Origin: a virus
Taxonomy: Duplodnaviria; Heunggongvirae; Uroviricota; Caudoviricetes
DNA: 4,488 nt
Strand: one strand, 5' to 3'
IMG/VR virus record: IMGVR_UViG_3300029512_000078
Below the pieces are notes generated by a model. That model saw only the letters and a program-made list of their open reading frames with translations. It ran no database searches and was not told the DNA's origin. The stretch's first letter is position 1. Every line of letters starts with the position of its first letter. Position numbers and translations under genes: made by a program. This document shows, piece after piece, positions 1,803-4,247 of this stretch.

Positions 1803-2186
1803 ATGCGTGATATTCAGATGGTTCTTGAACGCTGGGGTGCATGGGCGGCAAATAATCATGAGGATGTGACCTGGTCGTCCATTGCTGCCGGTTTTAAGGG
1901 ATTAATTCCTTCAAAAGTAAAATCTCGCCTGCAATGTTGTGACGATGACGCGATGATCATTTGCGGGTGCATGGCCCGTCTGAAAAAGAACAACAGCGAT
2001 TTACACGATTTATTAGTAGATTATTATGTATGTGGTATGACATTCATGTCACTGGCAAGTAAGCATTGCTGCTCGGATGGTTATATCGGGAAAAGGTTAC
2101 AGAAGGCTGAGGGCATAATTGAAGGGATGTTAATGACATTAGATATCCGGTTAGATATGGATATCGTTGCTAATAATTCTAATTGA
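1803..2186 (+). CDS. quuD: Late-gene transcription antiterminator Q (phage 82 / DLP12 QuuD-like family)
   Basis: 127-aa product [26 protein letters not shown]...[16 protein letters not shown]...[17 protein letters not shown], recognised as Q82-family antiterminator with Cys-rich Zn-binding motifs. ATG at 1803 is preceded by GGAG (1792-1795) at 7-nt spacing; the ORF-track start at 1788 is a TTG and less likely. Symbol is by resemblance to the E. coli K-12 DLP12 gene; the upstream genes differ from K-12 DLP12, so locus identity is uncertain. Confidence 0.8.
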
Positions 2187-2209
2187 TATGCAATTGTTTA
2201 CTAAAAGTT

Positions 2210-2237
2210 ATTAAAAATGGGGCGTGGAAACGCCCCC
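2210..2237 (-). terminator. Candidate intrinsic terminator for minus-strand transcripts (7-bp GC stem, GNRA-like loop, U-run)
   Basis: Plus strand GGGGCGT-GGAA-ACGCCCC (2219-2236); on the minus strand the hairpin is followed by ATTTTTAA (complement of 2211-2218). On the plus strand no T-run follows, so it is unidirectional for the minus strand. Lies about 150 nt downstream of the porin stop, across an N-gap. Confidence 0.45.
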
Positions 2238-2280
2238 AAAATAAAGGGTAATATATAACAGAAGGTTTATATAGTAAGAA

Positions 2281-2311
2281 NNNNNNNNNNNNNNNNNNNN
2301 NNNNNNNNNNN
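2281..2311. other. Run of 31 undetermined bases (N)
   Basis: Directly visible in sequence; content unknown. Confidence 1.
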
Positions 2312-2333
2312 AAGTGGCTTGAGGGCTCCACTT

Positions 2334-2374
2334 ATATGTTGCGGAGGCAAAGCCTCCCGCAACATATCTTTTTC
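2334..2374 (+). terminator. Rho-independent terminator for plus-strand transcripts (candidate tR'-like late terminator downstream of Q)
   Basis: ATATGTTGCGGAGGC-AAA-GCCTCCCGCAACATAT forms a roughly 15-bp stem with one bulged C, followed on the plus strand by CTTTTTC (2368-2374). On the minus strand the hairpin is preceded by an A-run and not followed by a T-run. A shorter hairpin AAGTGG...CCACTT (2312-2333) lies immediately upstream. Confidence 0.6.
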
Positions 2375-2384
2375 GTAAGTCAGA

Positions 2385-3467
2385 TTAGAACTGATAAACC
2401 AGACCTACAGCGGCGATGTCGTCGGTATCAATACCAGCTGTTTTGGTAAACTTACTATCGTCAATTAAGTTGATTTTGTAATCAACAAAAGTGGACATGT
2501 TTTTATTAAAGTAGTAAGTAGCACCGACATCGACATACTTGACTAAGTCTCGGTCACCATGAACACCAAGGTCTTTACCTTTTGACTGAAGGTAAGCAAC
2601 AGATGGGCGCAGACCGAAGTCAAACTGATATTGTGCTACTGCTTCAAAGTTTTGTGCTTTGTTTGCAATATGGTTATTACCAAAAACGGTCATATTCTGA
2701 GTTTCAGAATATGTGGTAGCCAGATAGATATTGTTCGCATCATATTTCAGGCCTGCAGCCCATACTTCCGCATTTTTGCCGGAGGCATTGAATTTGCTCT
2801 TACCATAGGCGACCTGACCGTCAGTGCGATCTGATTTAGCATAGGTTGCACCCACGCCGAATCCTTCATACTCATAAGTAGTGGAGAAACCGAAACCATC
2901 ACCATTGGCTTCAGTTACGTCAGTGCGGTCATTTTTACCCTGATACTGAGCAGCAAAGTTCAGGCCATCGACCAGACCAAAGAAGTCGTTGTTACGATAA
3001 GTTGCAACACCAGTTGCACGTTGAGTCATGAACACGTCGGTTTGAGTCCAAGTGTCACCACCGAATTCTGGCAGGACGTCAGTCCACGCACCGATGTCGT
3101 ATGCTACACCGTAGTTACGGCCGTAATCGATGGAGCCGTAGTCACCGAATTTCAGGCCAGCGAAGGCAAGACGGGTTTTATCTTTGGAGGAACCTTGAGA
3201 TTCAGCGCGGTTGCCTTTGAATTCATATTCCCACTGACCGAAACCAGTCAGTTGATCGTTGATTTGGGTTTCACCTTTGAAGCCAAGACGGGCATAAGTA
3301 GTATCACCATCATCTGCATCATTAGAGGAGAAGTAGTGCTTAGCATTAACTTTCCCGTACAGATCCAGCTTGTTACTGTCTTTATTATAAATTTCAGCTG
3401 CCTGAGCAGACATCGCCATCAGTACTGATGCAGCTACAGCAGAAATTGCCACTGTTAATTTTTTCAT
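2385..3467 (-). CDS. nmpC: Outer-membrane general porin (OmpC/OmpF/PhoE/NmpC family), prophage-encoded moron
   Basis: 360-aa product starting [23 protein letters not shown] (signal peptide, AQA-AE cleavage) then [17 protein letters not shown]..., contains the L3 constriction motif PEFGG and ends in the OMP beta-signal ...VGLVYQF. The ORF-track N-terminal extension to 3527 ([11 protein letters not shown]...) is rejected in favour of ATG 3465-3467. Symbol by analogy with the DLP12 porin located between quuD and essD; could equally be another prophage porin paralog. Confidence 0.9.
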
Positions 3468-3737
3468 CGTGAGCCCTTTTTTTGAACTATTATTAAAAAA
3501 TGATGTCACTGCGCGATAAATATTCATCTAATCAATGTGATTATTTCAAGATGTAAGTTTTGGTTTCTCGTTTGATTTGTGAAGTAGATCTCTATTTTTA
3601 TCTGAACTTTTTTCTATCGAATCCTATTCATGGCTCTTGGCTGAATAAAAATAAATCTATTAGCCAATTTATATTAATGTCTGTTATTTATAAGTGCTCT
3701 ATAATTTGAAGGTTCAATTTAAACCGGCTAAAAATAA
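3468..3737 (-). promoter_or_regulatory. AT-rich upstream region of porin gene (promoter/5'UTR; likely binding sites for nucleoid or porin regulators)
   Basis: About 270 bp of strongly AT-rich DNA with many A/T tracts immediately upstream of the porin start on the minus strand. Exact -35/-10 not assignable because too many near-consensus hexamers occur in such AT-rich DNA. Confidence 0.4.
3700..3705 (+). promoter_or_regulatory. Perfect TATAAT -10 hexamer on plus strand (candidate late promoter pR'-like or divergent promoter); weak -35
   Basis: TATAAT at 3700-3705; the best -35 at 17-bp spacing is poor (ATGTCT). A transcript starting near 3712 would end at the 3887-3919 terminator after about 200 nt, similar in length to lambda 6S RNA (194 nt). 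Chance occurrence in AT-rich DNA is quite possible. Confidence 0.25.
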
Positions 3738-3747
3738 NNNNNNNNNN
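3738..3747. other. Run of 10 undetermined bases (N)
   Basis: Directly visible in sequence. Confidence 1.
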
Positions 3748-3828
3748 GGTTATTTGTTGAGATTTGCTTATGTATTTGTAGTGGTGTTTTCAATACTCGG
3801 TAGCATTCTCGCAAATATCATTTAGTGG

Positions 3829-3842
3829 TTTACGTACGTAAA
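3829..3842. repeat. 14-bp perfect palindrome TTTACGTACGTAAA (candidate operator for a dimeric DNA-binding protein)
   Basis: Sequence 3829-3842 is its own reverse complement. It overlaps a weak plus-strand promoter-like arrangement (TTTACG, 16 bp, TATGCT at 3851-3856). Confidence 0.35.
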
Positions 3843-3886
3843 AAATTGGTTATGCTATTAAGAGTGGTCACTTCGTCACACAGCTT

Positions 3887-3919
3887 AAACCCGCCGTCGA
3901 GCGGGTTTTTCCATTTTTT
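3887..3919 (+). terminator. Rho-independent terminator on plus strand upstream of holin gene (second tR' candidate)
   Basis: AAACCCGC-CGTCGA-GCGGGTTT stem-loop (3887-3908) followed by TTCCATTTTTTG (T-run to 3919). Confidence 0.6.
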
Positions 3920-4031
3920 GAGTCTCGATATTAGCTGATAACCCAATACCTGAGTTATTCACTGACTCCGAGTCTGTTACGTTTCGTAGTATTCCCTCAA
4001 TTTACACCCGCTTTGTCTGCGAGGTGGGGTT

Positions 4032-4247
4032 ATGAAATCCATGGATAAGTTAACAACGGGTGTCGCCTATGGCACCTCAGCAGGTAGTGCCGGATACTGG
4101 TTTTTACAGCTGCTAGATAAAGTCACGCCCTCACAGTGGGCGGCAATTGGAGTGCTGGGTAGCCTGGTATTTGGCCTGCTGACGTACCTGACAAACCTTT
4201 ATTTCAAGATTAAAGAAGATAAGCGCAAGGCTGCGAGAGGTGGATAA
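4032..4247 (+). CDS. essD: Class II holin (phage 21 S21-type pinholin) with dual-start motif
   Basis: 71-aa product [71 protein letters not shown], with two TM segments and a charged C-terminus, closely resembling S21/EssD as recalled. Met1-Lys-Ser-Met4 gives starts at 4032 and 4041 (antiholin S71 / holin S68 arrangement). SD GAGGTG at 4021-4026. Confidence 0.9.

Follow-up and report, generated by a model that had tools for sequence, protein, structure and literature searches.

A palindrome overlapping the late promoter of a lambdoid Escherichia coli prophage is a probable binding element of its own Q antiterminator

What is the role of a perfect palindrome lying between the porin and holin genes of an Escherichia coli prophage? 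The palindrome, TTTACGTACGTAAA, occupies positions 3829-3842 of the stretch of DNA analysed here (4,488 nucleotides, called the window), which is the late-control region of a lambdoid E. coli prophage. Direct reading of the sequence confirms what the original prediction stated, a perfect 14-bp palindrome in the porin-holin intergenic region, and finds it in single copy in the window. It is placed within the 564-bp gap that runs from the start codon of the minus-strand porin gene (3467) to the holin gene (4032). The symmetry ends at 14 bp, the next pair outward being mismatched (G3828 versus A3843), and the palindrome is touched by neither of the masked runs of N (2281-2311 and 3738-3747). At the latter, K-12 reads AACACTGGAAATTATTTTTT where the window has AA followed by 10 N, and is 8 nt longer there. 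The genes of the window are:

123-788: KilA-N protein gene
790-1785: DUF968/HNH protein gene
1803-2186, plus strand: Q antiterminator gene, QuuD/DLP12 type, 127 aa (Pfam PF06530, E 2.6e-53)
2385-3467, minus strand: porin gene, lc/nmpC type, apparently cargo between the Q gene and the late promoter (Pfam Porin_1, E 1.5e-151)
4032-4247, plus strand: S21-type pinholin gene, 71 aa, the first late gene under the promoter module described below (PF04971, E 2e-35)
from 4247, plus strand: SAR endolysin gene, start only

The porin is homologous to PA-2 lc and K-12 nmpC, and the pinholin gene carries the annotation essD in E. coli genomes. The porin-holin gap was found in 2,661 of 5,426 complete E. coli genomes; among its carriers are phage PA-2, one sequenced isolate of phage 434 and the K-12 prophage DLP12, which has an identical palindrome. 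On the minus strand, the porin gene is followed by a long 3' untranslated stretch (2187-2384) which ends at a minus-strand terminator (2236-2219) and includes the masked positions 2281-2311. This corresponds to the place where Castillo-Keller et al. (2006) reportedly located IpeX, a small RNA of DLP12/PA-2 that lowers OmpC. A scan of the window against Rfam returned nothing significant (best E ~0.7), and no match at 2187-2384 either.

The length of the palindrome had been considered unlikely to arise by chance in about 560 bp. Yet perfect palindromes of at least 14 bp appeared in 5.5% of the dinucleotide-preserving shuffles of 3468-4031 and in 25% of those of the whole window. Moreover, a second perfect 14-bp palindrome, CATCAGTACTGATG, is found at 3417-3430 within the signal-peptide coding sequence of the porin, which shows that such palindromes do arise by chance in this window. 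As a purely statistical event TTTACGTACGTAAA is weak, and its significance rests on comparative data, not on an argument from chance.

The immediate context of the palindrome is a late promoter with a short, terminated transcript, both of which are supplied here and are unannotated in the K-12 and phage 434 records:

3829-3842, no strand: palindrome TTTACGTACGTAAA, candidate Q-binding element, at -34 to -21 with its centre at -27.5
3829-3834, plus strand: -35 hexamer TTTACG, 4/6 match to TTGACA with a 16-bp spacer; the left arm of the palindrome
3843-3850, plus strand: remaining promoter spacer AAATTGGT
3851-3856, plus strand: -10 hexamer TATGCT; TAnnnT is kept in nearly all aligned variants
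3863, plus strand: transcription start A3863, predicted 7 nt downstream of the -10 and matching a Cappable-seq call
3863-3913, plus strand: leader RNA of about 50 nt (48-51) ending at tR' (RNA fold), conserved across all Q/dyad classes
3887-3910, plus strand: intrinsic terminator tR', stem CCCGC/GCGGG plus A-U pairs, then a U-run (terminator scan)

The original prediction thus correctly placed the dyad over a candidate -35, since TTTACG stands 16 bp upstream of TATGCT, and rightly suggested a promoter on the plus strand ahead of the lysis genes. The promoter is of the sigma-70 type and has 8 of 12 consensus matches; a consensus promoter scan of 2150-4100, with a threshold of 9/12, found none. 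Among the variants the TAnnnT hexamer stands one base ahead of a conserved TTAAGAG, with one exception that reads CAGTAT. An A-tract, made up of the TAAA at the end of the palindrome and the first three A's of AAATTGGT, follows the dyad in most classes, and a T-tract does so in some. The RNA fold of tR', which sits upstream of the holin gene, has an energy of -12 to -14 kcal/mol (z -2.3).

The predicted start coincides with a plus-strand start of K-12 at U00096.2:576452, called by Cappable-seq with a relative read score of 1.7 and a log2 enrichment of 4.8 (Ettwiller 2016, PMC4782308). The call is weak, barely over the caller's threshold, and a 50-nt RNA is likely to be under-sampled in libraries of this type; the chance of a call at the predicted base is about 0.4% (34,724 called positions over 9.3 million strand-positions). 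The position was carried from U00096.2 to NC_000913.3:577229, then to position 4730 of locus L129 and to window 3863, with a 777-bp offset between the two genome versions which we presume from their known differences. This offset is supported by a strong start, 576081, that also lands exactly 7 nt after a hexamer, TATTAT. A start at A3863 puts the palindrome at the promoter positions given above.

The strong K-12 start (plus strand, U00096.2:576081, relative read score 90) corresponds to window ~3500, 7 nt past TATTAT (3488-3493) and about 30 nt upstream of the opposite-strand porin start codon. A transcript from there would cross the palindrome and run some 400 nt to tR'. The reporter primers of PMC7918800 ('-121' = window 3395) also place the essD '+1' of Rueggeberg 2015 near ~3500, and not at the pR'-like promoter. 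Within the leader, 3864-3879 (+2 to +17) form a small dyad or hairpin, GTGR-N7-8-YCAC, which is kept in all Q/dyad classes, its two arms changing together (GTGG/CCAC in E. coli types, GTGA/TCAC in Xenorhabdus types); it may serve as a pause hairpin or as another site for a protein. The mechanism of phage 21 Q requires a sigma-dependent pause element (TAnnnT). From +1 to +25 of the leader, AGTGGTCACTTCGTCACACAGCTTA, no clear case of TAnnnT was found, the nearest being TACTTC or TCACTT at +6 to +12. A reading in which the conserved TAnnnT is itself the pause element, with the true -10 in the A-tract, was rejected: the Cappable-seq start lies 7 nt past TATGCT, and an A-rich UP-element-like sequence stands at -40 to -46 from this mapped start.

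The distribution of this region outside the porin-holin gap indicates to which gene it belongs. In searches with the gap, only about 80 nt (3833-3910) recurs in phages that lack both the window's porin and its holin. This module is present in Stx2a_1447, SfII, mEp460, PhiR40_1 and Stx1 phages, whose gene order is a PF06530 Q gene, variable minus-strand genes, the module and the plus-strand late genes. Scanning the viral collection with the conserved leader core produced 120 further loci, and a Q-like ORF (PF06530) lies upstream on the same strand in every one of the 101 with enough upstream DNA. Several loci are free of cargo, the dyad and the module beginning about 10 nt past the Q stop codon. 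As these loci are ordered like phage 21 and the module recurs with Q, the module is evidently the late promoter, leader and terminator (pR'/tR') of the PF06530 Q family, and the porin is evidently cargo lodged between Q and its promoter. This arrangement would explain how cargo such as the Lc/NmpC porin can stand between the two without breaking the switch. The palindrome had also been proposed to mark the boundary of the porin cassette, but the same dyad is found at the same distance from the -10 in cargo-free relatives, and the element appears to be independent of the cargo. The distance from the cargo boundary itself to the palindrome downstream is about 8 bp or more and falls within about 10 bp.

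The short interval that separates the Q stop codon from position -36 or so of the late promoter is a hot spot for the insertion of minus-strand cargo. The insertions measure 0.6-2.9 kb, each has its own terminator, which abuts the Q stop, and elsewhere they consist of one to three hypothetical genes (L002, L004-L007, L013-L127). In two loci (L014 and L206) the Q ORF reads through the dyad and has its stop codon inside the -10. At the left cargo junction of the window, a sequence after the Q stop resembles a duplicated half-promoter (GTTTAC...TAAAAG); it was taken as a coincidence, being found only in the window's dyad class, with no counterpart in the other classes, and overlapping the T-run of the porin terminator.

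PF06530 corresponds to the Q21 family (PMC9388147), and on this source its assignment to the phage 82 family was rejected. The Q of the window is a distant sequence match to the structures of phage 21 Q (6P18/6JNX, E 1.4e-6) and carries a C-terminal helix-turn-helix whose recognition helix is of the SDG[YH]IGK class. In order to compare Qs and promoters, the Qs of the viral loci were aligned along with 80 loci from other Enterobacterales found with the Q alignment (Citrobacter, Trabulsiella, Pantoea, Xenorhabdus, Photorhabdus, Yersinia, Kosakonia, Enterobacter and others). All loci were gathered through one leader family or one Q family. The evidence is limited to loci chosen by leader or by Q only; the within-class conservation profile, partly circular in that its loci were chosen for the palindrome, was kept out of it.

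When the 62 nt preceding the -10 are searched for their longest palindrome, it proves to be centred at one fixed point (-27.5 or -28) in 37 of the 41 distinct promoter variants, 15 or 15.5 nt ahead of the TAnnnT hexamer. Almost all related modules are symmetric at this position, where nine dyad-symmetric sequences occur, one of them (TTTACAATCGTAAA) with an imperfect dyad (6/7 pairs). Across 156 Q/promoter pairs from several Enterobacterales genera, each of the nine dyad types goes with one type of Q recognition helix:

Helix SDG[YH]IGK[RK]LQ with dyad TTTACGTACGTAAA: 55 loci, several genera
Helix SDT[HY]IGKRLQ with dyad TTTACGATCGTAAA: 9 loci
Helix SDCWVGRLLQ with dyad TTTACAATCGTAAA: 4 loci
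Helix SDGT[IV]RKxLQ with dyad GCGTACGC: about 46 loci
Helix [DS]EKxIRIE[IM]Q with dyad GCGG-T-CCGC: about 25 loci
Helix SLNQVVIRLQ with dyad TGTTATAACA: 5 loci
Helix SHN[EQ]V[AS]KRLQ with dyad GTAATTAC, flanked (T)...(A): 7 loci
Helix SHT[HQ][VI]LKRLQ with dyad TGGAATTCCA: 2 loci
Helix SEGKIRQNLM with dyad TTTCGT-A-ACGAAA: 2 loci

The dyads of different classes differ symmetrically on both arms, and the leader downstream is nearly identical in all classes. Conservation across relatives, which had been put forward as a check on the palindrome, gave a clear answer: TTTACGTACGTAAA is intact in 55 of 55 loci whose Q has the SDG[YH]IGK helix, with diverged flanks. Escherichia, Shigella, Trabulsiella, Citrobacter, Pantoea and Xenorhabdus share all of its 14 bp while differing in the spacer, the -10 and the flank upstream. 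In 1.16 Mb of related DNA, no locus has more than one copy of its dyad. On the protein side, the variable helix positions are those expected to face the DNA in a sigma-region-4-like helix, and the structural ones (I/V, LQxAEG) are constant. Arg at helix position 6 seems to go with G/C-rich outer base pairs.

Co-inheritance could yield some association between helix and dyad, the helix-turn-helix coding region being the part of Q nearest to the promoter. Three dyad classes nevertheless share a Q N-terminal half whose distance from the helix-turn-helix is only about 150 bp, and this implies that recombination does happen within Q and that the N-terminal domain is uncoupled from the dyad. The cargo separating Q from its promoter comes in about ten lengths (0 to 2.9 kb) inside a single dyad class, and helix and dyad are never mismatched. 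Since recombination inside Q and swaps of cargo leave the two together, it seems unlikely that their pairing is mere linkage.

Taken with the pairing, the context of the palindrome points to a function in antitermination. A PF06530 Q gene lies upstream on the same strand, the element is within the promoter and overlaps its -35, a leader and a terminator precede the lysis genes, and the sequence of the element covaries with the DNA-reading residues of Q (9 helix and 9 dyad types in the 156 pairs). There is a good likelihood that TTTACGTACGTAAA is the Q-binding element (QBE) of the prophage late promoter, for a Q of the QuuD/DLP12 type. No known regulator had been assigned to the dyad in the original prediction; its class tracks the recognition helix of the Q encoded at 1803-2186, and the regulator is probably this antiterminator of the prophage itself rather than an unknown repressor. 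We infer the binding of Q to the dyad, the number of protomers and the loading step from these comparisons. In the absence of Q, transcription from the promoter would end at the terminator at 3887-3910 and yield only the leader of about 50 nt. Once made, Q would read the dyad through its sigma-region-4-like helix-turn-helix, probably as two protomers related by two-fold symmetry, would then load on RNA polymerase started at the late promoter, and the Q-loaded polymerase would read past tR' into the holin, endolysin and spanin genes. Points against the palindrome being a QBE are the direct repeat and the clear pause element of phage 21, described below, the weakness of the start-site call, and the distance between the centres of the half-sites (4-7 bp), unusually close for two helix-turn-helix domains.

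Other explanations of the palindrome have to be weighed against its identification as a Q site. One possibility is that a separate dimeric regulator, a repressor or activator of the host or of a phage, uses it as an operator on the late promoter. The footprint of a dimeric helix-turn-helix protein was indeed the original interpretation, and it survives in part: the symmetry is kept through nine changing classes, but a classical repressor operator does not agree with loci that carry the dyad only once and have no repressor gene linked to it. The perfect dyad and the overlap with the -35 would suit a separate regulator, and RpoE and Hha have been reported to influence the lysis operon of DLP12 (PMC7918800). 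Yet the dyad occurs only once per locus in the 1.16 Mb of related DNA, Q alone is conserved beside the module while the cargo between them varies, and a host factor cannot explain how nine dyads change with the Q helix inside single host genera, all of which makes such a regulator improbable. Two specific candidates of this kind were rejected. An operator of the CI/Cro type is contradicted by the lack of several nearby sites and of a linked repressor gene, the neighbours other than Q being variable. A CRP site would have TGTGA-N6-TCACA half-sites, which the palindrome does not contain, and both of the CRP sites that the PA-2 record J02580 annotates fall off the palindrome, at ~3575-3595 and, at the start of the leader, 3863-3883. 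The site at ~3575-3595 (TTTGTGAAGTAGATCTCTATT) is upstream of the porin gene, a position that would agree with the catabolite control reported for the Lc porin.

Alternatively, the palindrome could be nothing more than a -35 with the upstream part of the spacer, or an A-tract element acting through DNA shape, kept for basal promoter strength and symmetric by accident. TTTACG can pass as a -35, and in many variants an A-tract follows the dyad and an A-rich UP-element-like sequence precedes it. Nonetheless, several of the dyads would make very poor -35s (TAACGC, TAGCGC), recognition by sigma-70 is equal in all these hosts and leaves nine sequences unexplained, and so are the preserved symmetry and the link with the Q helix; a plain promoter element appears quite improbable. 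The double changes that distinguish the classes, being symmetric, would leave base pairing intact as well, and a hairpin of RNA or single-stranded DNA might form, for example, in the long transcript from the strong plus-strand start at ~3500, which would pass across the palindrome. The predicted fold is only -3.5 kcal/mol (z -0.9 against shuffles), however, and cores such as ACGTACGT or GCGGTCCGC leave loops of 0-3 nt and no stable stem. A recombination site of the cargo cassettes would be congruent with a cargo boundary within about 10 bp upstream, but the other classes lack a second copy flanking the cargo. Loci that have neither cargo nor a plus-strand promoter further upstream carry the dyad too, and a hairpin or a recombination site is very improbable. 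A functionless chance event, for which the shuffles and the second palindrome in the porin coding sequence may be invoked, is extremely unlikely in view of 14 bp that are all invariant across genera between diverged flanks and of eight other dyads at the identical centre.

The system with which a Q site is best compared is that of phage 21, whose Q alone in the family has a structure and whose QBE consists of two direct 8-bp repeats, ATTGAGCA and AATGAGCA, at -27 to -12, each bound by one Q protomer (Yin, Kaelber and Ebright 2019, bioRxiv 10.1101/651190; Shi et al. 2019, PMC6606751; annotated in OL657228). The annotated order in phage 21 is Q stop, -35, QBE, -10, start, pause element and terminator, with a leader of about 50 nt (OL657228). 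The window shares with it a PF06530 Q, an element in the late promoter, a promoter after the Q gene, a leader of about 50 nt, an intrinsic terminator and an S21-type holin, and a reading of the dyad by two protomers through a sigma-R4-like helix-turn-helix, as in phage 21, is plausible by analogy. The differences are also substantial. Two direct 8-bp subsites were not found in the window, which has no TGAGCA-like repeat and bears instead an inverted repeat about 8 bp further upstream (-34 to -21), overlapping the -35. A pause element stands out clearly in phage 21 (TAAGCT, +2 to +7), in contrast to the window leader, in which none could be made out. The Q of the window is shorter (127 aa versus 162 aa), and its length together with a partial alignment (Q21 residues 20-100) suggests that it lacks the long loop of the HT[loop]H motif of Q21. 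The element is thus probably a Q-binding element of the Q21 family that differs in form from that of phage 21, and not a new type of system. In the literature searched, neither a palindromic QBE nor a DLP12 Q protein site was found; a prior description is possible, Rueggeberg 2013/2015 being outside this coverage.

More distant systems show partial resemblances. In lambda (qut/6S), a constitutive late promoter also produces a short terminated leader and the Q site lies between the -35 and the -10, but lambda Q belongs to an unrelated family (PF03589), needs a -35-like element and NusA, and the leader has 194 nt. AlpA of Pseudomonas aeruginosa, acting at PalpB, is likewise a helix-turn-helix antiterminator that uses an element between the -35 and the -10 and then loads on the polymerase; it differs by its protein family and by the loading of a single protomer, and a dyad is not described (PMC9371919). 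The CI/Cro operators of lambdoid phages (dyads of 14-17 bp bound by helix-turn-helix dimers) resemble the element in placing a dyad over a promoter element and in their phage-specific, immunity-like classes. They come, however, in tandem sets of three beside repressor genes and serve repression, in contrast to the single site at a late promoter, with an antiterminator, in the window. In Stx phages, the region upstream of the late genes or of stx is 89-94% identical to window 3858-3910. Matches to 3858-3910 include many Stx2a, Stx2d, cdtI, phiP27 and SfIV phages, in which the upstream sequence is different. The leader of the Sakai late promoter gives rise to StxS, an Hfq-binding small RNA (Sy et al. 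2020, PMC7547250). That leader has 258 nt and follows a 144-aa Q, as against about 50 nt in the window, whose leader may be a short relative of StxS; this comparison concerns the transcript and not the palindrome.

These contrasts with phage 21 leave room for a more speculative view, in which short Qs of the Q21 family may load unlike phage 21 Q. A symmetric pair of Q molecules on the dyad might overlap and functionally replace the -35 and engage a polymerase held at the promoter's own -10, so that Q may take the place of sigma region 4 instead of engaging a polymerase at a downstream pause element. The view may extend to the Qs of QuuD/DLP12, Stx1 and SfII types, among others, and includes a recognition code in which, for example, Arg at helix position 6 may correspond to G/C outer pairs and Gly/Thr at position 3 to a central TA/AT step. 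As a whole this view is tentative and somewhat unlikely.

Antitermination by Q is the switch that releases the lysis genes and, in Shiga-toxin phages, the toxin. The lysis cassette governed by QuuD in K-12 affects biofilm and vesicle formation. In the Q21 family, the DNA site has so far been defined only for phage 21, and the dyad provides a testable candidate for the much commoner short Qs, among them QuuD of K-12 and those of several Stx1, Stx2 and Shigella serotype-converting phages. For this widespread group, the candidate Q sites appear to be dyads that fall into nine specificity classes and suggest an apparent recognition code which, if true, could predict which Q drives which Shiga-toxin or lysis operon.
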